64,000 nt of DNA from Candidatus Latescibacterota bacterium (lineage in GTDB: Bacteria; Latescibacterota; UBA2968; UBA8231), in the NCBI GenBank assembly GCA_965208105.1, contig OZ242318.1, forward strand, positions 672,001 through 736,000, in the 5' to 3' direction. The notes beneath the pieces were generated by a model. It made no database searches and was not told where the DNA came from. It worked only from the letters and a program-made list of their open reading frames with translations. The translations under genes were made by a program, and so were the position numbers. Shown here piece by piece: positions 42,592 to 64,000 of the stretch. Position 1 is the stretch's first letter. Each line of letters opens with the position of its first letter.

Positions 42592-42593
42592 TT

Positions 42594-44035: not shown

Positions 44036-44038
44036 GGC

Positions 44039-44407: not shown

Positions 44408-44445
44408 TTCTAGTCTGCCGGCCTTCACCTGAAGGAGACGCGAAG

Positions 44446-45573: not shown

Positions 45574-45617
45574 GAGGCGGTATTTCCATAGTATTGCCAG
45601 CCTTGAAGGAGGAGGTA

Positions 45618-46439: not shown

Positions 46440-46471
46440 TCACGAGCCCATCCAACGAGGAGAACAACCCC

Positions 46472-46840
46472 ATGCAACGAGTCGCCTTCATCCTGCGAGT
46501 CAAGGAAGGCCACGAGGAGGAGTACATCCGCCGCCACCGGGAGATCTGGCCCCAGATCCTGGACGATCTCGAACGGGCGCGGGTGCACAAGATGAGCATC
46601 TTCATGTCCGGCCTCCAGCTCTTCCTCTACATGGAGGTGGAGGACTACGCCGAAGCCGCCCGCGTCCTCGGCGAAAGCCCCGAGTCCATGCGCTGGGAGG
46701 AGTACATGGCGCCGATCATGGAGGACGCCGCGGGAGGCGACTACGACCCGCAGAACGCCTATCCCGACGGATTGCCCGAGGTCTTCTACTGGGAGAGCCG
46801 GGGCGGCAATTCTTCACCGAAAGGAACGAACCGTGAGTGA
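46472..46840 (+). CDS. rhaM: L-rhamnose mutarotase family protein
   Basis: EEYIRRHREIWP, SIF, LFLYMEV, RWEEYMAPIM, LPEVFY. Confidence 0.85.
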   Translation: MQRVAFILRVKEGHEEEYIRRHREIWPQILDDLERARVHKMSIFMSGLQLFLYMEVEDYAEAARVLGESPESMRWEEYMAPIMEDAAGGDYDPQNAYPDGLPEVFYWESRGGNSSPKGTNRE

Positions 46841-47663: not shown

Positions 47664-47712
47664 ACCGCCCGGGCCCCGTTTCCTCTCACCTCCCCCAACA
47701 GGAATCCGCCGC

Positions 47713-50505: not shown

Positions 50506-51939
50506 TTATATGGGGGGATGCATGCGGTGCCAGCCGCTGGCCTGCTCGAAGGCGTGGCCCACCCGGCACAGCAGGGGCTCGGCCAGGTGGCGGGCGGCGA
50601 TCTGAAGACTCAGCGGCAGGCCTTCGCTGTGCATGCCGCAGGGCACCGACAGGGTGGGACCGCCGCTGAAGTTGAAAGGCGCCGTGAAGCGCTGCAGCCT
50701 GGAGTCGCGGTCCCGCGGCATGGGGCCGTAGAGTTCATCCGGGGTGACCGCATGGGGCAGGGCGGCCATGGTCGGGGAGACGAGCAGATCGACCTGGGCA
50801 AAGACCCGGCGCAGGTGGCCGGTGCACTCGGACCTGAGCTTGTCGGCCCTGGCGTACTGCGCCCCGGTGACCTTGGAGCCCATGTCGAGCCAGTCCCGGA
50901 ACCAGGGGCCGTAGTCCCCTCTCCGGGACGGATAGGTCTCCTCGTGGGCCGCCGCGGCCTCGGCCGAACAGAGAACGGGCCACGCCGGGGAATACTGGTC
51001 CATGTCGGGCAGCTGCACCTCCACCAGCTCGGCCCCGAGTTCCTCCAGAACCTCGATTGCCTGGAGAACGGCGACGGAGATTTCAGGGTCGATCCCATCT
51101 GTGGCGAAGCGGGCGTCGTACCCCATGCGGAGGCCGGCCATACCCTTGTCGACGTCGGCGAGCATGTCGGGAACGGGGTCCGGCAGGGAGGTGGGATCGT
51201 TGGGATCGAAGCCGGCGATGGCCTGCAGCACGAGTCCGGCATCGGCAGTGCTCCGGGTCATCGGCCCCACGTGGTCCAGGGATTCGGCCAGCGCGAGTAC
51301 GCCGTGGCGGCTCACCCTGCCCCAGGTGGGTTTGAGACCCGCCAGGCCGCAGCAGGCCGAAGGGTAGCGGATCGAGCCCCCCGTATCGCTCCCCAGCGAG
51401 CCGAAGCACAGGCCCGCCGCCGTCGCCACCCCCGAGCCGCTTGAGGAGGTCCCGGTCCAGCGGCTCGAGTTCCATGGATTGAGCGGAATGTCGAAGGCGG
51501 AGTGATACCCCCCCATGGCCCCTTCGGAGAGGTTGAGCTTGCCGAGGACCACGGCCCCGGCCGCCGCGAGTCTGGTCACCACGGTGGCGTCGAAGTCGGG
51601 CACGTGCCGCGCCAGCACCTCCGTGCCGCCCATGGTGCGCACTCCCCTGGTGAAGCACAGGTCCTTGACCGCTATGGGGACCCCGTGCAGGGGGCCGCGC
51701 CAGGAACCGGAGGCGATCTCGCGCTCGGCCGCGGCGGCGGCTGCCAGGGCGTGATCCGCCATGACCGTGGCATAGCTTTTGAGGCGTCCGTCCAGCTCCC
51801 CTATGCGCTGCAGCGAGGTCTCCGTCAGCTCAACCGGCGACAACTGTTTCTTCCGAATCAGCTCGGCGGCCTGCTGAATGGTCTTGTAGTGGAGCGGAGT
51901 TTCTTCCTTGCGCGAAGTCCGAACGGCAGCTTGGTCCAT
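50506..51939 (-). CDS. Amidase signature family protein
   Basis: GPLHGVPIAVKD, GTSSSGSG, LGSDTGGSIRYPS. Confidence 0.92.
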   Translation of the reverse strand: MDQAAVRTSRKEETPLHYKTIQQAAELIRKKQLSPVELTETSLQRIGELDGRLKSYATVMADHALAAAAAAEREIASGSWRGPLHGVPIAVKDLCFTRGVRTMGGTEVLARHVPDFDATVVTRLAAAGAVVLGKLNLSEGAMGGYHSAFDIPLNPWNSSRWTGTSSSGSGVATAAGLCFGSLGSDTGGSIRYPSACCGLAGLKPTWGRVSRHGVLALAESLDHVGPMTRSTADAGLVLQAIAGFDPNDPTSLPDPVPDMLADVDKGMAGLRMGYDARFATDGIDPEISVAVLQAIEVLEELGAELVEVQLPDMDQYSPAWPVLCSAEAAAAHEETYPSRRGDYGPWFRDWLDMGSKVTGAQYARADKLRSECTGHLRRVFAQVDLLVSPTMAALPHAVTPDELYGPMPRDRDSRLQRFTAPFNFSGGPTLSVPCGMHSEGLPLSLQIAARHLAEPLLCRVGHAFEQASGWHRMHPPI

Positions 51940-51942
51940 GGT

Positions 51943-53103
51943 TCAATCCCCTCCGCTCTTTTCCCGCTCCGCCCACTCCGCCTTCCTCCTCCGCATCTCG
52001 TCGTTCAGTTCGGGCTCGCTTCTGGGCGTCCGGGCATGCGGATCGATGATCCACTCCCCGTTCCCGTCTCTGAGAACGGGCTTCCGCTGCGGTGCGGGGA
52101 GAATGCCGAACGGTTCGTGCGGCTCGATCTGGTACCAGTAGGCAACCGAGGCCATCTCGTTGCGAAGATGGTTGCCGTGGCCGTGCTCGATGCTCACCCG
52201 GATCTCCTTTTCGAAGCGAATGGGATTTTCGAGGTGAAAGACATACGAGGTCTGGTAGCCCTCAAGCTGCTTCTCGCAGATGGACGAACCGTTGTGGCGG
52301 AAGGCGTTGGGCTGCATGCCCCAGGCCTGGTTCAGGTAGTCCTCGGATCCGGTGCCGTGAAGGTCCGGCGGCCATTTGTAGCCGTCCACCCAGATCATGT
52401 CGTCGCCTTCGCCCCACCAGGTGCCCTGAAAGTTGGTGACCGAGAGATTGCAGCCGATGTAGTGGCCTATGCCGCGGGCGTCGAGGATGGCGTAGTTGTT
52501 GTCCCAGGCGAGCCGCTCCTTGTTGACGATGTCGGCGTCAGGGGTGTTGACCCTGATTTCGTGGCCCCAGCCGTCGCAGGGGTTCTCGCGGCGGAACTGG
52601 GCGTGGAAATAGGCGATGTCCCGCTCCAGCCCCCGATCGTAGGTTTCGTAGTCGATGTAGAAGAATTGCCGGTGGGGTTCACCGCCCTCGTTGACCAGCT
52701 CGACTCGCGCAGACTTGTCGAACGGCATCTGGACGTAGCTGTTCAATGCGCAACCGGTGTTGAACTGGTTGTTGTGGTTGGTCGAGGCCGAGAACAGAAG
52801 CGAATCGTAGGAGTTGACGAGCTCGTGTCCAAGCCCGAAGAAATCACCCAGGGGACACAGCACGCTCGGATGTTCTTCGCCGTCCCAGAAGAACCGCAGC
52901 AGGACGTCGCGGTAACCATCGCTCTGGGTCATCCAGAGGTGGTTGATGCAGCCGCTGCCTTCGATCTCTCCGAGCACCCGGACCTCACCCGGTTCGATCA
53001 TCCAGGAGTCTGCATTCCGGCCCGTCCGGTCCCATGAAGAAATGCGCGCCGAACGCGCATTTTTCACCCGGGGCAGAGAGGATAGAAGTCCGTGCTCGAA
53101 CAT
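51943..53103 (-). CDS. DUF2961 / GH172 family glycoside hydrolase
   Basis: SSWDRTGRNAD, PLGDFFG, WWGEGDD, GTGSEDY, IEHGH, SVAYWYQ. Confidence 0.88.
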   Translation of the reverse strand: MFEHGLLSSLPRVKNARSARISSWDRTGRNADSWMIEPGEVRVLGEIEGSGCINHLWMTQSDGYRDVLLRFFWDGEEHPSVLCPLGDFFGLGHELVNSYDSLLFSASTNHNNQFNTGCALNSYVQMPFDKSARVELVNEGGEPHRQFFYIDYETYDRGLERDIAYFHAQFRRENPCDGWGHEIRVNTPDADIVNKERLAWDNNYAILDARGIGHYIGCNLSVTNFQGTWWGEGDDMIWVDGYKWPPDLHGTGSEDYLNQAWGMQPNAFRHNGSSICEKQLEGYQTSYVFHLENPIRFEKEIRVSIEHGHGNHLRNEMASVAYWYQIEPHEPFGILPAPQRKPVLRDGNGEWIIDPHARTPRSEPELNDEMRRRKAEWAEREKSGGD

Positions 53104-53131
53104 GCCGTTGAAGTCAGGGTCAACCGCCGCC

Positions 53132-53908
53132 CTAGTCCTTGAAGGACGGGTCCTCCTCCTCCATCAGCCGCATCAGCGCGTCGAACTCGAGCTGCCCGGT
53201 GTCGGAAGCGCAGCGCGCGAACTCCCGCATCTGGCGCGCCGAGCGCTCGATCGCATCCTGTGGCGGGTAGCGCAGCTGGCCGCAGGACATGGCGTCGAGC
53301 TGCACCCTGCAGGCGCTTTCGAGGCGGTAGAGGTAGAGGAAGGCCTCGGCCACGGTGCGGCCGACGCTCAGGAGGCCGTGGTTGCGCAGGATGAGGACGT
53401 CGGCCGCTCCCAGATCGCGAGCCAGCTTCTCGCGTTCCTCCAGCAGCAGGGTCGAGCCCTCGTAGTCGTGGTAGGCCAGGCAACCGTGAAAGCTCATCCC
53501 GTTCATGCTCACCGGCAGCAGGCCGCATTCCAGGGCGGCTATGGCCATGCCGGCGCGGGTGTGGGTGTGCATGATGCAATGGGCATTCTCCCGGTGCTGG
53601 TGAATGGCGCTGTGGATGACGAATCCGGCCGGGTTGAAGCCGTACTCGCTGGGCTCGACGAGGTCGCCTGCGAGGTCGATCTTGACCAGATTGGAAGCGG
53701 TGACCTCGTCGTAGCGCAAACCGTAGGGGTTGATCAGAAAGTGGTGCTCAGGGCCAGGCACCCGCAGGGAGATGTGGCCATAGATCAGCTCGCACCAGCC
53801 CAGGTGGTGGAAGATCCTGTAGGCGGCGGCGAGCTGGACCCGCAGGTCGCGCTCGTCGCCGAGGGTCGCACCGGTGTCGACGGATGGCAGCGGCAATGTC
53901 GAAGTCAT
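53132..53908 (-). CDS. Class II aldolase/adducin family protein
   Basis: LAAAYR, HISLR, FLINPYG, GFVIHSAIH, MHTHT, LRNHGL. Confidence 0.92.
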   Translation of the reverse strand: MTSTLPLPSVDTGATLGDERDLRVQLAAAYRIFHHLGWCELIYGHISLRVPGPEHHFLINPYGLRYDEVTASNLVKIDLAGDLVEPSEYGFNPAGFVIHSAIHQHRENAHCIMHTHTRAGMAIAALECGLLPVSMNGMSFHGCLAYHDYEGSTLLLEEREKLARDLGAADVLILRNHGLLSVGRTVAEAFLYLYRLESACRVQLDAMSCGQLRYPPQDAIERSARQMREFARCASDTGQLEFDALMRLMEEEDPSFKD

Positions 53909-54048
53909 GGTCCTTCCCTCCGGGAAAGTGTGCGGCTCACGGCGCCGGTGAAATCCCCTGGTCGCCCGGAAACCGGTTTCGAAGGTTGGCTCGGCACCAC
54001 TGCGATGCGGATCCGACCAGGGCGGCAGCGGCGCCCGCCGATTCTCTG

Positions 54049-54077
54049 AGTATAGCCCCCAGTAGGAGGCCTCGCAA
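54049..54077 (-). promoter_or_regulatory. Sigma70 promoter for the aldolase-GH172-amidase-RidA run
   Basis: Minus strand TTGCGA (54077-54072) - 17 nt - TATACT (54054-54049). Confidence 0.65.
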
Positions 54078-54242
54078 GATCGATCCCAGGGCGGGGCCTC
54101 CGGGTCCGGTAGCGCCAGGGGCCTTGCCGAAACATGGGCGTTGAACCGGAGAAGATCCCATTGTTGGCACAGTTTTCGAAGCGGTCGCGCCTGTCCCCTG
54201 CCCCTGCTTCAAGCGGGTCCCCAGCCTGTAGCATCCCCCGCA

Positions 54243-56405
54243 TCAGGACTCCGGCTCGACCAGGACCACCTCGTGCAGCTCGACCCGGGGAACCACGATC
54301 TCCTGGGGAGTGCCGGCAAGCGCCAGGTCCGATTCCTGCAGGGGAAGCCGGGCCCTCCTCCCCTGGAAGCCGGGCAGGCGGATGCGGATATCGTGGACCG
54401 GGACAATTTCCTGGGTGAAATAGTAGCGGTAGATCTCATCGCCGTCGATCTGCGGCGGGAAAGGAGGCGACGGGTTGTTGAGCAGGTGTATCATCAACTC
54501 CCCGGAGGGCCGGATGGCGGCGGTCAACTCTATGGCCGCCGGCGCCTCCACCTGGATGGGAGCCGGGGTCCGCCCGATCAGGCTGGCGAGAAAGCGCATC
54601 AGCGGCGGATAGGGCACTTCCACGTAGGCGCGGCCCACGTCGCCGCTGATGTAGCAGGCCGAGCCCTGGCCGAAGCGGTTCACCGTCACCGTCGGTTCGC
54701 CGGTGTCGTACTCCATCTTCGGATTGAACTCGGGAAGGACCTCCCCCTGCAGGCTGCTGCGGGTGCACAGGACCTCGACCTGGGCGTCGGACCGCACGCT
54801 TACGGTGGACTCGATGCCGGAAAAGGGCAGAAGGACGTATCCGGTTGCAGCGGCGAGCTCATCGTGGACGACATAGACCACCCCGTTCCCCGCCCCGGTC
54901 TGGTGCGGACCGGTGTGGTCGAGGCCGAAGACGTCGGCCAGGGCGAAGTTCCCGCGCCGCTGCCCGAGCTCGTCCATGGTGGAGGTCTGATGCGTGGCGA
55001 TCAAGGTGCCGCCGCGGTCCACGAACTCCCTGATGTTTTCTACCTGCCGGTCGGAGAGGCAGGCGCTGTTGGACAGCAGCAGCACCTCGTAGGATCCAAG
55101 GGTGTCGTCGGCGAGCTGCTTGTCGTGCAGGAAGTCCACCGGGACGTGGGAGCGCCCCAGCATGTCGTACATGCCGTATATGTCCCGGAGGGTATAGCCG
55201 CCTTCCTTGCCTATGTTCTTGTAGAGCTCCGCCGGGCGGAAGTCGCGGTTCCGGGTGGAATAGTGCAGGGCGAGGTATTTCACCGTCTCGCCGGCGATGT
55301 AGTCCCTGCGCTTTCGGGCTTCGGCGAACCCGAACCTGATCATGTCATCCTGGAGTATGGGAGAGGTGTAGTTGGAAAAGGCGCTGCCACCGTTGGCCAT
55401 GGCTCCGAGTATGTGCTGGGTGAACATCCAGCGCTCCGGGTAGGGCGCCAGGCCCGCGGCCACGCCGGGCATGCTCTGCTGCCCGTGCCGCAACAGGGAG
55501 TGGAAGGTCCCCTTGCCGCGGTTGATCTTGGCCACGTAGCCGGTGTCGCGGCTGGAGCGGCTCATCTCCGTGAATGCATAGGCGGGAATGTCCTCGAAGC
55601 CGAACATGTCGATGGGATGGCCGCGCACCCACGAGGTGTCGGGCCGGGTATAGTAGTTGAACTCGAGGATGCAGTCGGGATACGCCCGGCGAATGCGGCC
55701 GAGAATGTACTTCACCGACTCCCGGGTCTTTTCGTAGCGCCAGACGATCCAGCGGCGGAAGTCCATGGAGCCGAAATCCACCTCGCGCGGCATGCGCAGC
55801 CCGGTCTCGTCCCTGAGCAGCCTGGTGCACACCTCGCAGCAGCATCCGGGGTACTCCCTGCCGCCCTGGTGGGTGCCGATGTTGGTGTCGTCGAAGTAGA
55901 ACCCGTCCAGGTCCAGGTTGTCGAGCCATTCGATGAGGTAGTCGGCCACCCAGTCGCGGAAGGGGGAATTAAGGCAGAACCAGCCCTCGTTCTCGATGAA
56001 GGGGCGGTCGTCGTAGAGGAAGTGCATCAGCCACTCGGGATGCAGGGGAACGAGCGGTTTGCAGAAGATCAGGGGATAATAGGAGATGGCGATGATCCCC
56101 TTCTCATGCAGCGCCCTGATGTAGCTGGGCAGGCGGTCCTCGTCCACGTCGTCGCGGCAGGGCAGCATCCTGGAGCGGTAGCGCGGGGTGCCGCGGTCGA
56201 TCTCCCCGTTGAGGACGGTCGCCTCCAGTCCCACGTCGGCCGCCCACTCGGCGAACTCATCCACCGACAGTCCCTGGAACTCCTTTGTCGGCCGGGAACA
56301 GGCAGGATAGGCCTCGGTCTTGCACACCCGCAGTTCGTAGGGCATCTGGCGCAGCCGCTCCGCCGTCGATCCAACTCTCTGCACAGTGGTTGAGGAATTC
56401 CTCAT
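54243..56405 (-). CDS. GH42/GHL6-like protein with beta-galactosidase trimerisation domain
   Basis: TIM-barrel part (HPEW, FCLNSP, DGFYFD, GCCCEVC Zn-like motif); LLLSNSACLSD...REFVDRGGTLIAT; NRFGQG. Confidence 0.7.
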   Translation of the reverse strand: MRNSSTTVQRVGSTAERLRQMPYELRVCKTEAYPACSRPTKEFQGLSVDEFAEWAADVGLEATVLNGEIDRGTPRYRSRMLPCRDDVDEDRLPSYIRALHEKGIIAISYYPLIFCKPLVPLHPEWLMHFLYDDRPFIENEGWFCLNSPFRDWVADYLIEWLDNLDLDGFYFDDTNIGTHQGGREYPGCCCEVCTRLLRDETGLRMPREVDFGSMDFRRWIVWRYEKTRESVKYILGRIRRAYPDCILEFNYYTRPDTSWVRGHPIDMFGFEDIPAYAFTEMSRSSRDTGYVAKINRGKGTFHSLLRHGQQSMPGVAAGLAPYPERWMFTQHILGAMANGGSAFSNYTSPILQDDMIRFGFAEARKRRDYIAGETVKYLALHYSTRNRDFRPAELYKNIGKEGGYTLRDIYGMYDMLGRSHVPVDFLHDKQLADDTLGSYEVLLLSNSACLSDRQVENIREFVDRGGTLIATHQTSTMDELGQRRGNFALADVFGLDHTGPHQTGAGNGVVYVVHDELAAATGYVLLPFSGIESTVSVRSDAQVEVLCTRSSLQGEVLPEFNPKMEYDTGEPTVTVNRFGQGSACYISGDVGRAYVEVPYPPLMRFLASLIGRTPAPIQVEAPAAIELTAAIRPSGELMIHLLNNPSPPFPPQIDGDEIYRYYFTQEIVPVHDIRIRLPGFQGRRARLPLQESDLALAGTPQEIVVPRVELHEVVLVEPES

Positions 56406-56483
56406 GGCCTGCCTCCTCTCTAATTGCGCCCGGCGGCGGGGGACCGCATCCCCTCCCGGCCAGGGGCCCGCCGCTGCCCGGAC

Positions 56484-56622
56484 GTCCTGATGCTGAAAAA
56501 CAGCCGCCTGGATTGCGGTGCTCAGCTTGTCGGGGTGCTCTCCCAGCCAAAATACAGCCCCGCCTGGGGCCTGGCAAGATCATCACCTAGCAGCCCGGAT
56601 GGACTTTTCAACGGGCTGCTAG
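56484..56622. mobile_element. MITE-like / IS-end remnant
   Basis: Left GATGCTGAAAAA, right ACTTTTCAACGGGCTGCTAG; perfect 11-bp IR CTAGCAGCCCG (56587-56597) / CGGGCTGCTAG (56612-56622). Confidence 0.45.
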
Positions 56623-56774
56623 GCTCCTTTCATCAGCTTCATCGCCCCGACCGGGCTCCTGCGCTTCCGACTCCTTGCGCCGCATCCGCCTTGACCTGTC
56701 CGGGCGGGTTGGACTACCTTCCAGCCGTTGCGGGAAGGTTCGCAGATTACCCACACGAGGAGGTTGGCCGCAGC

Positions 56775-57662
56775 ATGTTCCGCAAAGTCGATGTCGCCGC
56801 GATTTCGTTCGTACCCGGGAAGTTCGATCTGGAAGGCAACGGAAATCGCCTGGAGGAGCTGTTCCGCAGGGCCGCGGCCGGTGGCGCCGAGCTCGCCGTG
56901 GCTCCGGAGGGAGCCCTGGAGGGTTACGTGGTGAATGAGCTGGTCTCGGGGGACGAGCCGCCGCAGCGCATGAACGAGGTGGCGGTGACCATGCGCGGCG
57001 CGGTGATCGGGCGCTTCCGCGATCTTGCCCGCGAGCTCGGCATGTGCCTGGCCTTCGGCTGCGCCGAAAAGATCGGCAGGGGGGTGTTCAACTGCGCCGT
57101 GTTCATCGACCGGACCGGGCGCCTCTGCGGCCGCTATCACAAGATGCAGCTGGCCGAGGGCTCCCACCGCTCCTGGTGGTACAACCGGCTGGGGCGCAGG
57201 AGCCGGGCGATCGACACGCCCCTGGGGCGTTGCGGCTTTCTCATCTGCAACGACCGCTGGAATCCGGACCTGGCGCGCATCCCCGTCCTGGACGGCGCCA
57301 GGCTCCTCCTCATCCCTTCCTACGGGGACTGCTCGAAGAATCAGGACCGGGCAGTGCTCGCCCGCGCCCGCGAGAACGGCGTGCCAGTGGTGGAAGCCAA
57401 CGTGGGGGTGACACTCGCCGTCAGCAAGGGTGAAATCGTCGCCGTATCGCGCCGGAAGACGGAAGTTCTCCTGGCCACCATAGAGATTCCGGAGGCGCCT
57501 GCGAGGCGCAATCGCGACGCCGTGGAGAAGCGTTTTCTGGCCTGGCGCAAGAAGGAGATGCCCATTCGCTATCGCCGGCGAATGGAAGAGAAGGGCGCCA
57601 TGAGCTCCACCCGGGTCCTGCACGATTCCCGCGGAAGGCTGGTGGGCGAAGGCCAGAAGTGA
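56775..57662 (+). CDS. Carbon-nitrogen hydrolase (nitrilase superfamily)
   Basis: VAPEG, YHKMQL, FLICND triad; GAGGAGG RBS. Confidence 0.88.
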   Translation: MFRKVDVAAISFVPGKFDLEGNGNRLEELFRRAAAGGAELAVAPEGALEGYVVNELVSGDEPPQRMNEVAVTMRGAVIGRFRDLARELGMCLAFGCAEKIGRGVFNCAVFIDRTGRLCGRYHKMQLAEGSHRSWWYNRLGRRSRAIDTPLGRCGFLICNDRWNPDLARIPVLDGARLLLIPSYGDCSKNQDRAVLARARENGVPVVEANVGVTLAVSKGEIVAVSRRKTEVLLATIEIPEAPARRNRDAVEKRFLAWRKKEMPIRYRRRMEEKGAMSSTRVLHDSRGRLVGEGQK

Positions 57663-57716
57663 GGGGACGGCGCAACCGGGTCAAGGACCGGAACTCAACG
57701 CCGACTTCGGAGCGCC

Positions 57717-57883
57717 CTAGTGCCTGCTTGCGTAATTAAGCGTACGAACGAGGGCGCAGAAGCGCCCGGCTCGCAAGGCGCCTTAGCGAGTCGTACCAGT
57801 AGTGTACGGCGAGTGAAGGCAACGCCGTGGGTCGGGATGGATCGGTGGAAAAATGGCGACATATTTCTGCGAAGGGACACTAG
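57717..57883. mobile_element. CTAG-bounded MITE-like element (167 bp)
   Basis: Imperfect terminal IRs CTAGTGCCTGCTTGCGTAATTA / TATTTCTGCGAAGGGACACTAG; internal CGTAC-N7-GTACG hairpin. Confidence 0.6.
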
Positions 57884-59016
57884 CCGTGGCGCCAGCGCTC
57901 GATGACCTCGGGACGCAGCGGCAGGCCGAACCCAGGTCCCTCGGGCAGAATCATGTACCCCTCCCGGATCTCGGGCCGTTCCCGGGGAAGATCGAACCAC
58001 ATGGGATCGCGGTTGTAGTTGGGAAAGATCTCGACGCAGAGACCGTTTGGCGCCGCGGCGAGGAGGTGCAGGGCGACCTGGGGCTCTTCGTGGTGGGCCA
58101 TGCCGATCCCGAAGCAGTGGGCCATGGCGGCGATGCGCCGCCACTCCGTCACCCCCGCCGCAATGGTGGCGTCCACGTTGAGGATGTCCACGGCGCCGCG
58201 CACGATCATGTCGCGGCAGCCGTGCCTGGATATCTCCCCCTGCCCCGCGGTCACCGGGATGCCGGCCGCCCGTATGCGCGCGTTTCCTTCGATCTGCTCA
58301 TTCCACCGGGCGGGTTCTTCGAGCCAGGCGAGGTTCAGGTCAACGGCGCCGCGGGCGAAGGCCAGGGCCTGATCCACCGTCCATCCCTGGTTGGCGTCGA
58401 CGCAGAGATGGAAATCGGCCCCTCCGGTCCTGCGCGCCAGGCGGGCGCGCTCGATATCCTCCTCCACGCTCAGGTGCCCGACCTTGAGCTTCATGCCGTG
58501 AATCCCCTGGTCGAGATAGTGGGCGACCTCGGCTTCCAGGTCGGCGCGGCGCCCCTCCTGCATCACGTAGCCGCCGATCGCGATTACCGGCACCCGGTCG
58601 CGGTAGCCGCCCAGCAGTTTGAACACGGGTTGTCCGAGGGATTTCCCCAGGGCGTCCCACAGGGCCATGTCCACGGCGGCGATTGCCTGGCTTTTGGCGC
58701 AGTGCTTGGCCAGGTCCAGACTGTGGATCCCCCGGTTGCCCAGGTCGATATGAGTCGACCACATGGATTCCCAGTGGCTTTCAACGTCCCTGACGTCCTT
58801 GCCCTCGAGCAGGGGCCGGAAGATGGTGTTCACGACCCGGCAGACCTCCAGCTGGTATTGGTCTTCGTCGCCGCCGAAGACCTCTCCGACCACGCCGTTG
58901 TCCAGCTCCGCGCGGGTGACGATGGTGTTGCGGGAGGTAATCTTGTAGGTGCCGCCCTGAAATGTTTCCTCCAAGCGGCGCACCAGGGGAACGGCCTCCA
59001 GGTTTTTGATCATCAT
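57880..59016 (-). CDS. Mandelate racemase/muconate lactonizing enzyme family protein
   Basis: AAVDMALWDALGK, MKLKVG, VDANQGW, WLEEP, PGFG. Confidence 0.92.
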   Translation of the reverse strand: MMIKNLEAVPLVRRLEETFQGGTYKITSRNTIVTRAELDNGVVGEVFGGDEDQYQLEVCRVVNTIFRPLLEGKDVRDVESHWESMWSTHIDLGNRGIHSLDLAKHCAKSQAIAAVDMALWDALGKSLGQPVFKLLGGYRDRVPVIAIGGYVMQEGRRADLEAEVAHYLDQGIHGMKLKVGHLSVEEDIERARLARRTGGADFHLCVDANQGWTVDQALAFARGAVDLNLAWLEEPARWNEQIEGNARIRAAGIPVTAGQGEISRHGCRDMIVRGAVDILNVDATIAAGVTEWRRIAAMAHCFGIGMAHHEEPQVALHLLAAAPNGLCVEIFPNYNRDPMWFDLPRERPEIREGYMILPEGPGFGLPLRPEVIERWRHG

Positions 59017-59031
59017 GGTCGGATTTCGTCC

Positions 59032-59577
59032 TCAGGCTTTACCTGCCCGGGCGGCTTCGTAGAGATCACCGCCGCGGCAGTCGTTGAGCACCACCGCGGG
59101 AAAACGGTTGAGGCGCATGCGGTGAACGGCTTCGCTCAAAAGCTCCGCGAAGGCGACGACCTCGACTTCCTCGATGGCGGTGGAAAGCAGGGCGCCGGTG
59201 CCCCCTATGGCGCCGAGGTAGACGCCGCCGTGCTGCGCCAGGGAAGCCTTGACCCGCGATGAAACGTACCCCTTGCCGATGAAGCCGCGAAGACCGCGGC
59301 CCATCAGTGCGGGAATGAAGGGATTCATGCGGCCGCTGGTGGTGGGGCCGGCCGCACCGACCACCTGTCCGTCCCTGGCGGGGGAGGGGCCGACGAAGTA
59401 GAGCAGCTGTCCTTCCAGGTCCACGGGCGGCTCCTCACCCCGGACCAGAAGCTCGTGGATGCGCGCGCAAGCCTGGTCCCGGCCGGTGAATACATCGCCC
59501 ACCAGCTCCACCTCTTCGCCCGCCCGCAGGGAGGCGGCCGCCTCCTTTTCCAGGGGCAGGTGAATCTCGGTGGCCAT
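59032..59577 (-). CDS. Class I fumarate hydratase / tartrate dehydratase, beta subunit
   Basis: TGRDQA, YFVGPSP, AGPTTSGRMN, FIGKG, D..GGDLY. Confidence 0.9.
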   Translation of the reverse strand: MATEIHLPLEKEAAASLRAGEEVELVGDVFTGRDQACARIHELLVRGEEPPVDLEGQLLYFVGPSPARDGQVVGAAGPTTSGRMNPFIPALMGRGLRGFIGKGYVSSRVKASLAQHGGVYLGAIGGTGALLSTAIEEVEVVAFAELLSEAVHRMRLNRFPAVVLNDCRGGDLYEAARAGKA

Positions 59578-60419
59578 CAGAGGACCGCCTCCTGGTGGCG
59601 ATGGGCGTGGCACTCGATATTGACGCTCACGGGAAGACTGGCGACGTGACAGGCGGCAGCTTCGGCGTGGACCGCGAGGGCCGTGGTCTCGCCGCCGTAG
59701 CCCTGGGGGCCGATGCCGGAGGCGTTGATCCGGCGTAGCGCCTCCTGCTCGAAGGCAGCCAGGTGCGACTGCGGACTTGGGGCCCCGATCGGGCGCAGCA
59801 ACGCCTTTTTGGCCAGCAGGGCCGAGTACTCGAAGGAGCCCCCGAGACCAACCCCCACAACCATGGGAGGGCATGCGTTGGGACCTGCCTGGGCGGCCGT
59901 ATCCACGACGAATTGGAGCGCCCCTTCGCGCCCGTCCGCCGGCGTCAGCATCTTGAAGCGGCTCATGTTCTCGCAACCCCCGCCCTTGGCCAGGAGCTGC
60001 AGGCGCAGGTGCTCCCCTGCGACCAGCTCGGCGTGAACCACCGCCGGGGTGTTGTCCCCGGTGTTTCCGCGCTCCAGGGGATCGGCTGTAATGGAAGCCC
60101 GCAGGTAGCCCTCCTTGTACCCCCTGCTCACCCCGTCGTTGATCGCATCCTCCAGGAGGCCGCCGACGATGCGCACCTCCTGCCCCACCGCGGCGAATAC
60201 CACCACAAGGCCCGTGTCCTGGCACATCGGCAGCGAGCGCGACGAGGCGATCTCCGCGTTCTGCAGAATTCGGTCCAGGGTATTTACCGCGAGTGGATTG
60301 GTTTCCCTCCGCGCGGCCTGGGCGAGAGCCGCCCGCATGTCCTCCTTGAGCTCGAAATTGGCCTTCCTGCACATCGTCGCAACGGCGTCGCGGATCCGGG
60401 TAACGCTTATCTCTTTCAT
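59577..60419 (-). CDS. Class I fumarate hydratase / tartrate dehydratase, alpha subunit
   Basis: PMCQDTG, YLRAS, NTGDNTP, KGGGCEN, ACPP, GIGPQGYGG, CHVASLPV, CHAHRH. Confidence 0.92.
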   Translation of the reverse strand: MKEISVTRIRDAVATMCRKANFELKEDMRAALAQAARRETNPLAVNTLDRILQNAEIASSRSLPMCQDTGLVVVFAAVGQEVRIVGGLLEDAINDGVSRGYKEGYLRASITADPLERGNTGDNTPAVVHAELVAGEHLRLQLLAKGGGCENMSRFKMLTPADGREGALQFVVDTAAQAGPNACPPMVVGVGLGGSFEYSALLAKKALLRPIGAPSPQSHLAAFEQEALRRINASGIGPQGYGGETTALAVHAEAAACHVASLPVSVNIECHAHRHQEAVL

Positions 60420-60480
60420 CGCAGAATCAAAAGGTTTCCGAAATGGAGCTGGAGGGGCGGCGGGACATCCACCGCGGCCC

Positions 60481-61233
60481 TTATTCCACGTCCCTTCTTT
60501 CAGGCCCGGAATAGGAGATCGAATCTACTCCGGCGGCCTTGAAAGGGCGCTCCCTGGTCGCTTGCTCGTGGGCGTGTGCGGCATATCCCGGCGCGCGGCT
60601 TACGATGAAGAAGGTCTTGCCCAGGGCCGGATCGATTCCCATGTCGCAGATCAGCGCGGCTATGGCCCCGTCCACGTTCAGCGGCAGCCGCCGGCCCAGG
60701 TCCTCCTCCAGGGCATCCTCCAGGCATCGGGCAAGGGCCGCGTGCGCCCCCGCTATCCTCCACTCGTGCGCCAGCTCGAAGAGGGTGACCGCGCGCGGGT
60801 CCGGATTGTGGGCAGGATGTCCGAATCCGGGCAGGCGGAGTCCGGCGGCGCGCTGTGCCGCGACTATCTCGGAGGCGGAGCGGCCCGCGGCCACGGCTTC
60901 CTGCAGAATGCGCGCGCAAGGTTCCATCGCGCCTCCGTGGACATCGCCGATGGCGCTGATCCCGGCGGCCACGGCGGTCTGCAGGGGGACGCCGCAGGAG
61001 GCCACGAAGCGAACGGCGTCGGCGCTGGGAGAAGCCAGGCTGTGCTCGCAGCAGGAAACCAGGATGGCCTCGACCATCCGGCCCTCGGCCCCGGACGGCA
61101 ATTCTCCCTTGAGCAGAAGGTACACCGTATCGCCGAAGCTACAGCGGCGGGTCAACTGCTCGATGGGGTAGCCCCGGACCAGGATCTCGTTGGGCTTGAC
61201 CCGCGATATGGAGGTTCTCCAGAAATCGCTCAT
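60481..61233 (-). CDS. ccl: Citryl-CoA lyase (citrate synthase-like short protein)
   Basis: About 250 aa; WRTSIS....ILVRGY, GDVHGGA, RLPGFGHP.H..DPR, LPLNVDG, FIVSRAPG..AH..EQ. Confidence 0.82.
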   Translation of the reverse strand: MSDFWRTSISRVKPNEILVRGYPIEQLTRRCSFGDTVYLLLKGELPSGAEGRMVEAILVSCCEHSLASPSADAVRFVASCGVPLQTAVAAGISAIGDVHGGAMEPCARILQEAVAAGRSASEIVAAQRAAGLRLPGFGHPAHNPDPRAVTLFELAHEWRIAGAHAALARCLEDALEEDLGRRLPLNVDGAIAALICDMGIDPALGKTFFIVSRAPGYAAHAHEQATRERPFKAAGVDSISYSGPERRDVE

Positions 61234-62108
61234 GAGAGAAGTCCTGTCAAAAGATCGTCGAACTCTTCGGCCACGAAAACCCCCGCGCGCCGCAGCGCCT
61301 CCTCCTTGCCGCGCACGGAGCCGCGGCCCTCCTCCACGATGGCGCCGGCGTGTCCGAAACGCATGCCTTCGAACCTGTCCACGAAGCGCCCGGCGAGGAA
61401 GGCGTTGATGCGCAGCCGGCTCCCGTTCCGTTCCAGGTGCCGGGCGAGCTTCTCCTCGGCCACGCCGCCGGGCTCGCCGAAGATCACCACCGCGCTGGTG
61501 GTGGGATCGGCCTCGAGCAACTCGATCAACTGCACGAAGTCGGAGCCGATGATGGGGTCGCCGCCCACGCCCACGGCGATGCTCTGGCCGATCCCGTTGC
61601 TCGTCAGGAAACTGGCGATTTCGGTCGTCATCCCGCCGCTCCTCGACAGCACCGCCACCTCCCCCGCCATGTAGGAGCGGCGCACATTGTCCACGCGGCC
61701 GCCGATGGTGCCCACCTTGGCGAGGCCGGGGCGGATGAGCCCCAGGGAGTTGGGGCCGATGACCGTGCATCGGCCATTGGCGGCGGCCACGATCCTGCTG
61801 GCGTCCAGCCGCGGCACCCGTTCGGACATGATGAGGCAAAGCCCGATGGCGTGGGCGAAGGCTTCGAGTGCCGCCTCGAGAACCGCAGGGGCCGGCACCG
61901 AGATCACCGATACGGCGGGATCGTGTTCCTTGAGAACCTGCCCCAAGGTATCGTAGACGGGGATGTCATGCACCTTCTCCCCGCCCTTGCCCGGGGTCAC
62001 CCCGGCGACGATGTTGCTGCCGTAGGCCAGCATGTCCCCCACCATCGCCCGGGCCTCGCGCCCGGTGATCCCCTGCACCACGATTCCGGCTCGTGGCTCA
62101 AGCAGCAT
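61230..62108 (-). CDS. Acyl-CoA synthetase (ADP-forming) alpha subunit, SucD / citryl-CoA synthetase small subunit-like
   Basis: VQGITG, GVTPGKGG, IGPNSLG, SRSGG, GGDPIIG, GEPGG, FGHAGA phospho-His. Confidence 0.9.
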   Translation of the reverse strand: MLLEPRAGIVVQGITGREARAMVGDMLAYGSNIVAGVTPGKGGEKVHDIPVYDTLGQVLKEHDPAVSVISVPAPAVLEAALEAFAHAIGLCLIMSERVPRLDASRIVAAANGRCTVIGPNSLGLIRPGLAKVGTIGGRVDNVRRSYMAGEVAVLSRSGGMTTEIASFLTSNGIGQSIAVGVGGDPIIGSDFVQLIELLEADPTTSAVVIFGEPGGVAEEKLARHLERNGSRLRINAFLAGRFVDRFEGMRFGHAGAIVEEGRGSVRGKEEALRRAGVFVAEEFDDLLTGLLS

Positions 62109-63297
62109 GGCCCCCGACCCTTTCCACCGCCATGCGCGCAGCCCGGTCCAGGGAAATCTCCCGCCCCAGCGCTTCGACCCCTGCCGCCGCCATGATCCGG
62201 CGCGCCTCCTGCTCCCACGAGCCCGGAACGCGAAAGACGGCGATGGTCTCGGCGGGATTCCGGCCTGCCCCCTCCATGCCGCGCAGGACTCCTTCGGCGA
62301 TTATGTCGGCGCGGGTGTTGTTGACCACGTTCATGATGGCCGCCAGCTTCACCACGCCAGGCTTGGAGAGCAGCAGGGTGGTCAGGGCCGCCACCTTCTC
62401 CGCGGTGGGATTCCCTCCCATCTCGCTGTAGTTTGCCGGCCTGCCTCCATGCCGGAGCACCGCGTCGAACACGGTCAGGCTGGCCCCGCCGCCCCCGATG
62501 AGCAAGCCCAGGTCGCCGTCGAACTCGACCACGCGGCCCGCCACCCCGCGGTGGTCCATTGCGTCGATGCGCCGGGCATGCTCCTCCATGGGCGTGGGAG
62601 AGCGTCCCGCGGAAGCCGCCTCGACCTCCCCCAGGCCGGCCACCCGGTGTTCCTGCCTCCAGGAGGCGTCATCGTCGATCTCCACCTTCGCGTCCAGGCC
62701 GACGAGCTCCCCGTCCGCTGTCACCACGAGGGGGTTGATTTCCACCGTTACTGCATCGATCTCGAGAAAAGCCCGCGCCAGGCGGTCGAGTATGCGGCCC
62801 ACGCCCACCAGGTTTTTTCCGGTCAGGCCGGCGGCGGCGGCCATCTCCCGGCCCTCATGCGGCCGCAGTCCGCAAACCGGATCAAGGTGGCGGCGGACCC
62901 TGCCCTGCGCAAAGCTCTTCTCCACTTCGATCCCCCCACCCGTACTCAGCAGCGCCAGCGGCCGTCTGGCGGCCAGGTCCCAGGTGATCCCGGCGTAGAG
63001 CTCGCGCTCGAAGTCGATCCAGGGCTCCACCGAAACGGCGCCCACAGGGTGCTGGCGCAGCACCATGGCCAGGAGAGCCTTCGCCGCACGCTGCGCATCC
63101 CTGGAATTCCGGGCAGTCCTGACGGCCCCGGCCTTGCCGCGTCCGCCAAACGGGACCTGGGCCTTGAGCACCGCCGGCCTACCCAAGCGCTCCACCGCGG
63201 AGGCCGCTTCTTCCGGCGTCCGCGCCACGGCCGGGAGGGTGAAATCCAGACCGAAATCGCCGAGCACCATCTTGCTCTGGTATTCGACCAACCTCAA
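62098..63297 (-). CDS. Acyl-CoA synthetase (ADP-forming) beta subunit, citryl-CoA synthetase large subunit-like
   Basis: Likely TTG start at LRLVEYQSK; KAQV..GGRGKAG, EINPL, LDAK; C-terminal GGGGAS and ANYSEMGGNP (ACL/CCS-type). Confidence 0.85.
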   Translation of the reverse strand: MRLVEYQSKMVLGDFGLDFTLPAVARTPEEAASAVERLGRPAVLKAQVPFGGRGKAGAVRTARNSRDAQRAAKALLAMVLRQHPVGAVSVEPWIDFERELYAGITWDLAARRPLALLSTGGGIEVEKSFAQGRVRRHLDPVCGLRPHEGREMAAAAGLTGKNLVGVGRILDRLARAFLEIDAVTVEINPLVVTADGELVGLDAKVEIDDDASWRQEHRVAGLGEVEAASAGRSPTPMEEHARRIDAMDHRGVAGRVVEFDGDLGLLIGGGGASLTVFDAVLRHGGRPANYSEMGGNPTAEKVAALTTLLLSKPGVVKLAAIMNVVNNTRADIIAEGVLRGMEGAGRNPAETIAVFRVPGSWEQEARRIMAAAGVEALGREISLDRAARMAVERVGGHAA

Positions 63298-63656
63298 AAA
63301 ATCTGTTTCTCTCCAGGTGCCGGCCCCGCGAACTTCAGCGGACCCATGCCGCACCGGACTTCCCTTCCCCCGGACCGGAGAGGAAAGATATTCCCGGAGC
63401 GGCCGAGCTCCCATGGATCCGTCCTGATTGAGAGACGCCATCGGGCATCGATTCAAATCTTAACCACCTCCTCAGCGGATGACAAGAGCCCCGGCGATCG
63501 GCCGTTCACCCTGATTCCATCTCCGTCCGAATTTTCATTTTCGCCGGGGTCCATCGCTTCGGCACCGGCCACATTCAGGAACCACTCCTTGCGCCGCGGG
63601 GGCAACAATCGATATCCTATTACAGCACGCATTTCAACCTGAGGAAGGACGAGAAC

Positions 63657-64000
63657 ATGGGCGACAGCACGTTGACCGCAGGGGTGGCGCGCCTCGACAT
63701 CACCCCACCCCTGGGATTTCGCATGCAGGGAATAATGAGCCGCACCGAGGGAGCGGACGGCGTGGAATCGGCGCTGCTGGCTACGGTGCTGGTATTGGCC
63801 GATGAGCACACCAAACTGGCCATCTTCGACTGCGATCTCATCGGCTTCGACCTGCCTCTGGCGGACGAGATCCGCCAGGCCGTGGGCGGCCGCCTGTCCA
63901 TCCCCTCCAGCCACGTACTGCTGGGATGCACCCACACCCACAACGGCCCCTGTACCTCCCGGGGGAACCTGGGAGGCGTGCACGATGTGGGCGGCGATCC
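63657..64000 (+). CDS. Neutral/alkaline ceramidase N-terminal-like protein, runs off the window
   Basis: Manual translation MGDSTLTAGVARLDITPPLG...DCDLIG...VLLGCTHTHNGP. Confidence 0.8.
   Translation, partial: MGDSTLTAGVARLDITPPLGFRMQGIMSRTEGADGVESALLATVLVLADEHTKLAIFDCDLIGFDLPLADEIRQAVGGRLSIPSSHVLLGCTHTHNGPCTSRGNLGGVHDVGGD

Follow-up and report, generated by a model that had tools for sequence, protein, structure and literature searches.

A putative citryl-CoA synthetase/lyase-type module joined to hydro-lyase genes in an operon of a heterotrophic Latescibacterota bacterium

The 64,000-nucleotide stretch of Candidatus Latescibacterota DNA analysed here (the window) contains a six-gene operon built around the beta and alpha subunits of an acyl-CoA synthetase and a short citryl-CoA-lyase-like (Ccl-like) enzyme. 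This trio is conserved as a unit and lies outside any reductive TCA (rTCA) cycle. That it belongs, in general terms, to a Ccs/Ccl-type module serving heterotrophic catabolism is highly probable. The leading reading is a previously undescribed CoA-dependent route whose substrate would be citrate or an analogue of it, and no published description of this operon was found. Taken whole, the best explanation is an ATP- and CoA-dependent module that uses citrate, or something closely analogous, as substrate and is coupled to hydro-lyases. Judged from sequence, it stands at slightly under an even chance, and equally tentative are the direction of cleavage and the position given to the hydro-lyases.

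The initial annotation placed six tightly packed minus-strand genes at 57880-63297, and the open reading frame listing and translations agree, with all six intact. First comes the large, or beta, subunit of an acyl-CoA synthetase of the NDP-forming type (62098-63297, 399 aa, TTG start), whose C-terminal substrate domain is CcsA-like. It overlaps by 11 nt the SucD-like alpha (small) subunit (61230-62108, 292 aa), which in turn shares an ATGA overlap with a short citrate-synthase-fold lyase of the citryl-CoA-lyase family (60481-61233, 250 aa). After 61 nt follows a class I (Fe-S) hydro-lyase of the fumarase/tartrate-dehydratase type, made of two subunits: a FumA-like alpha (59577-60419, 280 aa) and, overlapping it by 1 nt, a FumB-like beta (59032-59577, 181 aa). 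A 15-nt gap separates the latter from an MR/MLE enzyme of the mandelate-racemase subgroup of the enolase superfamily, resembling acid-sugar dehydratases (57880-59016, 378 aa). The corresponding Pfam domains are ATP-grasp_2 with Citrate_bind, CoA_binding with Ligase_CoA, Citrate_synt, Fumerase, Fumerase_C and MR_MLE_N/C.

Two plus-strand genes bound the operon: a convergent CN-hydrolase gene (56424-57662, by Pfam) and the divergent start of a gene resembling the neutral ceramidase N-domain (63657-64000, a weak Pfam Ceramidase_alk match). The divergent intergenic region (63298-63656) is the presumed promoter region at the level of consensus matches. It holds two sigma-70-like matches where 0.7 are expected, one of them, scoring 9/12, at 63485-63457 on the minus strand. 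The arrangement is not a chance one, since the six genes recur in identical order in a congeneric genome (L004; protein identity 79-92%) and one 4494-base DNA-run contig spans most of the operon (57842-62334). Short metatranscriptome contigs from three runs fall on all six genes, a weak hint of expression.

The beta subunit matches Pfam ATP-grasp_2 at 139 bits and Citrate_bind at 27.9 (cut-off 26.8), and falls below the NCBIfam cut-offs for SucC (239 < 370) and MtkA (186 < 604). Its best full-length structure is Thermus succinyl-CoA synthetase (SCS) at 200 bits, slightly above CcsA at 171, and its N-terminal ATP-grasp is most SCS-like. The C-terminal 180 residues match Hydrogenobacter CcsA (6hxq_B) at 85 bits, SCS chains at 56 or less and AclB (6hxj_A) at 43. 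The motifs first quoted for this protein were confirmed, GGGGAS (residue 268) and PANYSE (residue 287). In HMMER alignments these motif sites read GGGGS, PANFTDIGGNP and NNTRID in Hydrogenobacter CcsA, and NGAGLAM, PANFLDVGGGA and GGI.RCD in succinyl-CoA synthetases. Common to beta and CcsA are GGGG(A)S, PAN(F/Y)..GGNP.AEK and NNTR.D, all near-invariant among beta relatives; LIGGGGASLT is kept in 119 of 120 family members. A Thr of CcsA aligns with Ser here and with Cys in most relatives. In ACLY the presumable counterpart is Thr348, which contacts citrate; the ligand here may therefore be something other than citrate.

The phylogeny proposed as a check in the initial annotation sets beta outside the SucC/MtkA clade, in a 32-row tree built without CcsA and autotroph AclB sequences. 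Beta lies in a 21-row clade (support 94/87, core 99/99), and SucC, MtkA, the genome's own SucC and its paralogue form a separate clade (99/94). The alpha subunit falls below the NCBIfam SucD cut-off (249 < 353) and carries a phosphohistidine-type GHAGA motif at residue 252. Its best structural match is an archaeal SCS alpha (2yv2, 217 bits), with CcsB at 176 and E. coli SucD at 172-174; on these scores it resembles SucD proteins in general, and CcsB is no nearer to it than the usual SucD is. The earlier assignment of the set to CcsAB/Ccl rather than SucCD consequently holds for beta (C-terminal domain, tree, motifs) and for the lyase (NCBIfam, 6hxp) but not for alpha. By these comparisons, beta and alpha are predicted to form an acyl-CoA synthetase of the NDP-forming type whose substrate domain is of the CcsA/ACL kind.

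The third gene encodes, as read from its residues, a citrate-synthase-fold lyase with a complete catalytic set (His/His/Asp plus Arg residues). It passes two NCBIfam citryl-CoA-lyase models (NF004866, 262 > 245; NF004869, 247 > 212), and its best PDB match is Hydrogenobacter Ccl (6hxp, 2e-56; family profile 252 bits). Within the family 40/40 sequences share H64, H99, H139, D188, R147 and R213, and 39/40 have R or K at position 229. Taking the arginines to have the roles we assign to them, their invariance points to an oxaloacetate-type product rather than pyruvate. All characterised citrate-synthase-fold enzymes, to our knowledge, form or cleave a bond to oxaloacetate.

The FumA-like protein (Pfam Fumerase, 360 bits; PDB 7xky, 200 bits) is the genome's only Fumerase-family gene product, with its cysteines Cys66, Cys149 and Cys183 in CQDTG, GGGCEN and ACPP. 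It may simply be a fumarase, since its score clears the cut-off of the fumarate hydratase equivalog (NF004885, 381 > 276); it scores 187 against a cut-off of 365 as TtdA. FumB matches Fumerase_C at 156 bits and lies below NF005310 (186.5 < 238) and TIGR00723 (143.6 < 145.15). The MR enzyme bears the motifs KLK176, VDAN206, LEEP232, GQGE258, NVDA280 and AHHE307. Among NCBIfam models, arabinonate dehydratase (173 < 650) scores best for it, followed by talarate/galactarate dehydratase (156 < 500), and its best PDB matches are unnamed MR/MLE entries (3msy/4h83/3no1, 1e-85). The D-tartrate dehydratase structures 2dw6/2dw7 are remote, at about 80 bits.

Relatives of the operon's proteins are labelled as at least five phyla, and the cluster family occurs in polysaccharide- and glycan-degrading heterotroph lineages. 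The full order in metagenome contigs is E2, beta, alpha, Ccl, E1beta, E1alpha, (FumAB), MR, so that a PDH-like complex flanks the trio; sugar-acid genes often accompany it, and its E1beta passes the PDH E1beta model. Linkage was counted over 44 metagenome loci with a Ccl at least 57% identical, with testable loci as denominators. Alpha adjoins Ccl in 29/30 and beta in 22/22, and the relatives' operons, which are translationally coupled, carry E2 in 16/19 and E1beta in 23/28. Around the trio MR occurs in 8/11 and FumA in 6/11, and a PrpD-like dehydratase in two loci (G098, L080). In G098 it stands in for MR/FumAB, at 44 bits to the PrpD model. The hydro-lyases are, on this gene-content evidence, apparently interchangeable around one constant core. 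Two further loci (L005, L006) pair a 60%-identical beta/alpha with a CitE-like lyase instead of Ccl (CitE 235 bits, the best score; RipC 169; malyl-CoA lyase 78). Citryl thioesters are the sole substrate class that we know of for both lyase folds.

A sugar-acid module at 40987-48783 on the plus strand (by Pfam) is probably linked to the operon. It encodes a DAP_DH_C-like dehydrogenase, a glyoxalase-fold protein, an amidohydrolase, a Rieske protein, the MR paralogue MR2 (44446-45570), an SDR, a xylose-isomerase-like TIM barrel (AP_endonuc_2) and a GFO/IDH/MocA oxidoreductase. In L020 a module directly adjoining the cluster has counterparts of DAP_DH_C, MR2, SDR and AP_endonuc_2 at 62-79% identity, and seven metagenome loci have an MR2 orthologue (69-76%) upstream of the cluster. 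The ceramidase-like gene is also a recurrent neighbour, in identical divergent placement in L004, L020 and L021; a homologue (30% identity) separates E1beta from E1alpha in L043 and L052, and in L055 it comes after MR. No carboxylate transporter was found among 46 flanking ORFs scanned in eight loci.

In the proposed mechanism, the Fe-S hydro-lyase and the MR-type enzyme would add or remove water on an ene- or hydroxy-polycarboxylate just upstream of thioester formation. Beta/alpha would then convert ATP, CoA and citrate, or a close 2-substituted-malate/citrate analogue, into a CoA thioester through a phospho-histidine on alpha. From this thioester the Ccl-like enzyme would release an oxaloacetate-type 2-oxo acid together with an acyl-CoA, in the simplest case acetyl-CoA. 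Where relatives have the full-length operon, its dedicated E1alpha-beta/E2 would perform the adjoining conversion of 2-oxo acid to acyl-CoA; housekeeping complexes would do so here.

Running the trio in the opposite direction, as an ATP-conserving citrate or alkyl-citrate synthase, is somewhat unlikely but the most credible alternative. A PDH-like or, here, housekeeping complex would supply acetyl- or another acyl-CoA, Ccl would join it to oxaloacetate as a citryl-type CoA ester, and beta/alpha would free the acid with formation of ATP. The hydro-lyases would dehydrate tartrate-type dihydroxy-dicarboxylates to oxaloacetate or process the tricarboxylate as PrpD or aconitase does. PDH-type complexes run solely towards acyl-CoA, and the trio has E2 on one side and E1beta/E1alpha on the other within a single coupled operon; because citrate-synthase-fold enzymes work on oxaloacetate, as far as we know, this complex has no obvious substrate in the cleavage direction. 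Dispensability of E1/E2, as in the six-gene operon and L033, is expected if it makes acetyl-CoA only. The invariant arginines fit oxaloacetate use. Of the two tartrate dehydratase classes known to us, one is related to class I fumarases and the other belongs to the MR subgroup, and FumAB and MR match this pair; a PrpD-like protein, from a family acting on (methyl)citrate, replaces them in G098. Substrate-level ATP would be valuable, since sugar-acid genes are present and no kinase or aldolase family was found within the scanned operons. However, the coupled acetyl-CoA/oxaloacetate/ATP reaction is near equilibrium and requires high oxaloacetate, and the genome already has two ordinary, full-length citrate synthases. 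FumA also scores far higher as fumarate hydratase than as TtdA, MR is remote from 2dw6/2dw7, and no methylisocitrate-lyase-type gene was seen in the scanned loci.

It is improbable that the synthetase acts on a non-citrate substrate, conserving ATP, in the way that SCS follows OGDH, from a CoA ester that the PDH-like complex forms from a 2-keto-3-deoxy sugar acid, with Ccl cleaving a different 3-hydroxyacyl-CoA on the same route. MR-type dehydratases yield 2-keto-3-deoxy acids, which are 2-oxo acids, and MR2, SDR, GFO, FucI/SftI-like isomerase and RhaM-like genes accompany the cluster. Yet the trio stays together where E1/E2 is absent (here and in L004, L025, L026, L046 and L098), the beta substrate domain is CcsA-like, and a CitE-like lyase can replace Ccl. 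That these are ordinary TCA paralogues, a second SCS plus a fumarase with an unrelated lyase and racemase next to them, is very improbable. SucC and SucD are the best NCBIfam models for the pair, FumA passes its equivalog and Thermus SCS is the best full-length structure for beta, but the scores lie far under curated cut-offs, the tree sets beta apart and linkage to Ccl is strict. The recommended genome search found a canonical SucCD (SucC at 541 bits, above cut-off), a further SucCD-like pair and a class II FumC elsewhere; the operon pair is not the cell's own SucCD. Least likely, at a very slim chance, is citrate cleavage for an autotrophic rTCA cycle as in Aquificae, part of which had been suggested initially: homology to CcsA and Ccl and one two-subunit 2-oxoacid:ferredoxin oxidoreductase favour it, but the genome's OGDH E1o, SucCD, FumC and pair of citrate synthases point to a cycle run oxidatively, the family sits in sugar-acid operons of glycan degraders, only 5/168 genomes of the phylum have a close Ccl, and sponge Latescibacterota are portrayed as polysaccharide degraders (PMC13200403).

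The preferred citrate-type module differs from each known system. CcsAB and Ccl are the two-step citrate-splitting enzymes of hot-spring autotrophs. Those of Hydrogenobacter thermophilus (6hxq, 6hxp) are likewise three separate polypeptides of the same folds and the nearest solved structures for the beta C-terminal domain and the lyase, whose catalytic residues are kept. Here, however, the host is a heterotroph, one operon includes hydro-lyases (with a PDH-like complex in relatives), alpha is SucD-sized, beta has N-Y-S/C for N-F-T, and the system is known from sequence. ATP-citrate lyase (AclBA/ACLY) shares the expected chemistry (ATP, CoA, phospho-His, citrate-synthase-fold cleavage) and the Citrate_bind match, but alpha and lyase are unfused here and the AclB match is weak; a true fused AclA-type gene, present in other Latescibacterota (L022), branches far away. 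SucCD and MtkAB share superfamily and subunit sizes and differ in clade and substrate-loop motifs. Mesaconate/itaconate degradation clusters (Burkholderia xenovorans) combine a class I fumarase-mesaconase, CoA activation and citramalyl-CoA lyase, similarly grouping a fumarase with an enzyme for CoA activation and one that cleaves a C-C bond of a substituted malate, but with a CoA transferase and an HpcH-fold lyase in place of the ATP-dependent synthetase and citrate-synthase-fold lyase. The methylcitrate cycle (PrpC, PrpD, aconitase) also unites a citrate-synthase-fold enzyme with a dehydratase acting on substituted citrate, as the PrpD-like gene of G098 recalls despite its low score; no thioester-hydrolysing synthase or PrpB-type lyase was seen here, whereas an ATP-coupled synthetase is present.

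By gene order and content, the six-gene operon appears to be a reduced version of a widespread heterotroph operon whose invariant core is the CcsAB/Ccl-type trio. It probably handles a sugar-derived organic acid, and a sugar-acid-derived or plant/algal polycarboxylate would thereby enter central metabolism.

The cluster at 57880–63297 is genuine: an operon that is intact and conserved, and a variant of the citryl-CoA synthetase/citryl-CoA lyase (Ccs/Ccl) system placed in the catabolism of a heterotroph. It is not unique to the window. ORF listing and translation gave six intact minus-strand genes joined by overlaps or by gaps of at most 61 nt, and Pfam and NCBIfam confirmed the families of all six products. 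The putative acyl-CoA synthetase is formed by beta (62098–63297; TTG start, 399 aa) and alpha (61230–62108; 292 aa), followed by a short Ccl-like citrate-synthase-fold protein (60481–61233; 250 aa). These three genes, termed the trio, precede the FumA-like (59577–60419) and FumB-like (59032–59577) halves of a split hydro-lyase, FumAB, and an MR/MLE enzyme, denoted MR (57880–59016). A convergent CN-hydrolase gene lies at one end and a divergent ceramidase-like gene at the other, and G+C is even throughout the operon at 0.64–0.70. Upstream of beta is a single sigma-70-like match, which is evidence at consensus level only. The terminator scan found 4 candidates against 3.8 expected, the background level, and no Rfam family matched within 56300–64000.

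A repeat of about 130–170 nt occupies the intergenic stretch directly downstream of MR (57716–57885). The 4.85-Mb genome has 128 further blastn matches to it, about 90% identical, and its contig depth is very high in one DNA run; it has no Rfam match and folds no better than shuffles (z −0.45). A palindromic element of about 35–40 nt at 56587–56622 has 31 further genome matches, and one DNA contig omits 34 nt there.

The larger synthetase subunit is more like citryl-CoA synthetase than SucC, as the initial annotation had proposed: it fails the NCBIfam cut-offs for SucC (239 against 370) and MtkA (186 against 604), its C-terminal domain is closest to CcsA, and it belongs to a separate clade. 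Pfam Citrate_bind, the ACL/Ccs-type citrate-binding C-terminal domain, scores 27.9 over a cut-off of 26.8. The C-terminal 180 aa give 85 bits to CcsA of Hydrogenobacter (6hxq_B), against at most 56 to any SCS and 43 to Chlorobium AclB, and share with CcsA the motifs GGGG(A)S, PAN(F/Y)..GGNP.AEK, NNTR.D and DHRG.AG..VE.DGD. At full length, beta is about equally distant from Thermus SCS (200 bits), Hydrogenobacter CcsA (171) and E. coli SucC (168). The loop motifs are near-invariant among 120 beta relatives, LIGGGGASLT being present in 119. The eight commonest loop variants, covering 92 sequences, read N-Y-C in 88 and N-Y-S in four, the window beta among the latter, whereas the CcsA loop is N-F-T, a motif also carried by ACLY.

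A maximum-likelihood tree of 32 rows, with 14 of the 120 family proteins, places beta within a 21-row clade (94/87) that has a core of 18 rows (99/99). A clade apart from it (99/94) unites the SucC of E. coli, S. aureus and Streptomyces, three annotated MtkA, and the genome's own SucC with its paralogue. The ACL-type pair of other Latescibacterota is likewise apart. Of the phylogeny proposed at the outset, the tree covers SucC, MtkA and the ACL-type pair, with beta outside them all; CcsA and autotroph AclB are not among its rows.

The small subunit did not turn out to be specifically CcsB-like. It matches archaeal SCS alpha best (217 bits), ahead of CcsB (176) and E. coli SucD (172–174), and its 292 aa compare with 353 aa in the CcsB chain. 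Judged by sequence, alpha is a generic SucD-like protein. Identification of the pair as malate thiokinase MtkAB is rejected on the MtkA score and on the position of the three annotated MtkA inside the SucC clade. SucCD itself is rejected on both scores (that of alpha being 249 against 353), on the separate clade and on the presence of the genome's own SucC at 541 bits.

The third gene product belongs to the citryl-CoA-lyase family, as first annotated: two NCBIfam citryl-CoA-lyase subfamily models are passed (NF004866, 261.9 over 245; NF004869, 247.3 over 212), the nearest structure is Hydrogenobacter Ccl (6hxp, 2e-56; family profile 252 bits), and the catalytic residues are kept. HGGA99, GFGH139, DPR147, NVDG188 and R213 do not vary across 40 of 40 proteins of the family, 39 of which have R or K at the position of R229. 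The His/His/Asp residues are taken to be catalytic and the Arg residues oxaloacetate-binding, roles that we assign after citrate synthase. Short Ccl-like proteins are diverse as a whole, with 351 representative clusters at E ≤ 1e-30.

In two other Latescibacterota (loci L005 and L006), beta/alpha 60% and 70% identical to the window pair, and nested inside its family in the tree, are preceded by an HpcH-fold lyase that replaces Ccl. This lyase is most like CitE (235 bits), followed by RipC (169) and malyl-CoA lyase (78), and neither FumAB nor MR lies near these two loci. No substrate class other than citryl thioesters is known for both lyase folds. We take the swap as the strongest individual hint that the substrate is citrate or an acid very like it.

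The L005 (7054–10068) and L006 sets of CitE-like HpcH lyase, beta and alpha stand alone among unrelated flanks and may represent an alternative split citrate-lyase-type system. A true ACL-type pair is present in further Latescibacterota (L022, 4590–8002, and L024; genomes G012 and G016). It consists of an AclB-like protein (Citrate_bind, 57 bits) and an 808-aa fusion of CoA_binding, Ligase_CoA and Citrate_synt, is 30–37% identical to the window proteins, and forms a long separate branch.

Of the hydro-lyase subunits, FumA passes its model (NF004885, 381 over 276), and FumB is slightly below its cut-offs (186.5 against 238; 143.6 against 145.15) and passes Pfam Fumerase_C. Cys66, Cys149 and Cys183 of FumA sit in conserved motifs and are presumably the cluster ligands. 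By these features FumAB would be a class I (Fe-S) two-subunit fumarate hydratase, with fumarate, mesaconate, tartrate or another acid as candidate substrates. The L(+)-tartrate dehydratase TtdAB is rejected by score (TtdA 187 against 365; TtdB 55 against 264), and a role as the housekeeping fumarase is rejected because FumC is encoded elsewhere in the genome. Because FumAB is the sole class I enzyme of the genome and additional to the class II FumC, it is read as a dedicated hydro-lyase. The last gene product belongs to the mandelate racemase subgroup of the enolase superfamily, with Pfam MR_MLE_N/C and the full motif set: KLK176, D207 (VDAN), E233/E234 (LEEP), E261 (GQGE), D282 (NVDA) and H308/H309 (AHHE). 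These are taken to be the KxK motif, three metal-binding acidic residues and the barrel Asp-His dyad. MR reaches no NCBIfam equivalog cut-off for any named dehydratase, and the open-access literature searched describes no function for 3msy-type MR enzymes.

Comparison of the cluster with its relatives shows that the trio is tightly conserved, that the hydro-lyases are interchangeable, and that the setting is one of catabolic, sugar-acid-type operons. The best 120 relatives of beta are 60–98% identical and the best 120 of Ccl 65–93%, with source labels that include Verrucomicrobia, Chthoniobacterales, Lentisphaerae, Planctomycetes (Pirellulales), Poribacteria and Abditibacteriaceae. Within Latescibacterota, the window's own phylum according to record titles, a close Ccl occurs in only 5 of 168 genomes; a congeneric genome (L004) has the identical six-gene order at 79–92% identity, with the same flanks. 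A metagenome scan with the Ccl alignment returned 80 loci, and neighbor counts were made on the 44 whose Ccl reached 57% identity or more. Gene order was taken from tblastn with probe proteins; simple GC3 and greedy selection of ORFs had miscalled antisense frames where G+C was high.

Among the loci testable for each gene, alpha lies near Ccl in 29 of 30 and beta in 22 of 22. Genes of a complex resembling pyruvate dehydrogenase (PDH) surround the trio, with the lipoyl acyltransferase E2 upstream (16/19), E1beta downstream (23/28) and E1alpha (10/14). An MR orthologue is found in 8 of 11 loci, FumA in 6 of 11, a FucI/AraA-like isomerase in 6 of 16, a ceramidase-like gene inside the operon in 3 of 11 and a RhaM-like gene in 2 of 11. 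E1beta exceeds the PDH E1beta model cut-off (337 over 321), E1alpha and E2 are PDH-like with scores under cut-offs, and the isomerase is most like sulfoquinovose isomerase (72 bits). The canonical order is E2, beta, alpha, Ccl, E1beta, E1alpha, (FumA, FumB), MR. In L052, 16 translationally coupled genes run GFO, SDR, a 104-aa ORF, a second MR paralogue (MR2), P450, isomerase, E2, beta, alpha, Ccl, E1beta, ceramidase-like, E1alpha, FumA, FumB, MR. Variants lack FumAB, with MR directly after E1alpha (L044, L062, L094, L061, G099); carry a PrpD/MmgE-like gene instead of MR/FumAB (G098, L080); consist of the trio alone (L025, L026, L046, L098); or, like the window, lack E1 and have FumA directly after Ccl (L033). 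The replacement in G098 (L021, 12398–13804) is a distant MmgE/PrpD-family protein (44 bits to the PrpD model). The window's own genome has no cluster-type E1/E2 orthologue, its best matches being paralogues of 31–44% identity.

A plus-strand module of sugar-acid type lies 12 kb away in the window (40987–48783) and encodes a DAP_DH_C-like dehydrogenase, a glyoxalase-fold protein, an amidohydrolase, a Rieske protein, MR2 (44446–45570), an SDR, a TIM-barrel protein and a GFO oxidoreductase. Its DAP_DH_C, MR2, SDR and TIM-barrel proteins are 62–79% identical to those of a module beside the cluster in G099. Core genes of the module are orthologous to one directly beside the Ccs/Ccl cluster in genomes of genus g5 (L020, L021). 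Between the module and the operon (50506–57662) are genes for an amidase, RidA, two CN-hydrolases, DUF2961, a class II aldolase-family protein and a GHL6-type glycosidase; a link of the amide/nitrile hydrolase-type genes to N-containing sugars is possible. The neutral-ceramidase N-domain protein (about 480 aa; 63657–64000 on the plus strand, G000:C1:735663-737084 in the genome) is a recurrent partner, a divergent neighbor in Latescibacterota and placed between E1beta and E1alpha in L043 and L052. Of 62 unassigned ORFs with 120 aa or more, 46 were run against Pfam, the other 16 being mostly antisense or overlapping calls. No carboxylate transporter was found among these 46 flanking ORFs, which suggests that the acid arises inside the cell during sugar breakdown and is not taken up from outside.

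A partial reductive TCA cycle, one of the explanations first offered, is not supported: the genome encodes OGDH E1o (1086 bits), two full-length citrate synthases, SucC and FumC. The suggested search for a separate sucCD found the canonical SucC and a further SucCD-like pair elsewhere in the genome. The search for kor/por found a single two-subunit 2-oxoacid:ferredoxin oxidoreductase locus. The trio is independent of SucCD and of the reductive TCA cycle. The SucCD-like pair at G000:C1:906490-908487 (L002), third in the genome, has an alpha above its SucD cut-off (373 over 336) and a beta just short of that for SucC (336 against 370), on a long branch of the tree.

In the cleavage direction, beta/alpha would spend ATP to convert a citrate-type acid into its CoA thioester, which Ccl would split into an acyl-CoA and a 2-oxo acid of the oxaloacetate type. 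The hydroxy acid would be prepared by FumAB and MR through water addition or removal. That the trio works in this direction is proposed tentatively, with slightly less than even confidence. The main rival, held with clearly less confidence, is the reverse, in which the trio would act as an ATP-conserving citrate (or alkyl-citrate) synthase in a kinase- and aldolase-free route for sugars or sugar acids. The dedicated PDH-like complex would then deliver acyl-CoA for condensation by Ccl, with release by beta/alpha yielding ATP; the Fe-S and MR hydro-lyases would supply the oxaloacetate-type partner or process the product. Such a flow accounts no less well than cleavage for the position of the trio between E2 and E1, for the Arg residues of the oxaloacetate type and for the PrpD swap, but it is thermodynamically tight, and ordinary citrate synthases are already in the cell. 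Against any citrate reading stand the generic alpha, the N-Y-S/C loop in place of N-F-T, and the lack of a carboxylate transporter among the 46 flanking ORFs. A citramalate/mesaconate substrate, with pyruvate passing to the PDH-like complex, ranks below citrate-type acids, since the Arg residues of the oxaloacetate type never vary and the lyase that replaces Ccl resembles CitE most.

Near-identical DNA occurs in runs labeled sponge or marine metagenome from 11 studies, one contig of 4494 bases spanning 57842–62334. Three metatranscriptome runs (three studies) contain short, low-depth contigs of 150–390 nt, 92–99% alike, that touch all six genes and leave the operon partly uncovered. Two of these bridge the Ccl/alpha and alpha/beta junctions, although DNA carry-over is possible and a single operon transcript is not demonstrable from contigs. 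PMC13200403 names sponge Latescibacterota as main expressers of polysaccharide lyases, which fits a lifestyle based on glycans and sugar acids.

In the open-access literature searched, Ccs/Ccl is discussed for autotrophs only, and no operon of this kind is described from a heterotroph. Ccs/Ccl is taken to mark a reductive TCA cycle of the Aquificae type, and KEGG-style annotation of such genes in metagenome-assembled genomes can pass for carbon-fixation potential. Since the same trio is conserved in catabolic operons of uncultured heterotrophs labeled as Verrucomicrobia, Planctomycetes (Pirellulales), Lentisphaerae, Poribacteria, Abditibacteriaceae and Latescibacterota, the marker is unsafe on its own. 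The operon also points to an undescribed route in which the breakdown of sugar acids is combined with a PDH-like complex and with thioester chemistry coupled to ATP. If the trio did run in reverse, a deoxy-sugar or sugar acid would be funneled into citrate with a substrate-level gain of ATP, a catabolic logic that, to our knowledge, has been described for no organism. Once the substrate is assigned, 'succinate--CoA ligase / citrate synthase / mandelate racemase' annotations numbering from several hundred to thousands would gain a function, and either a new pathway for the cleavage of organic acids or a citrate synthase that conserves energy could come to light.
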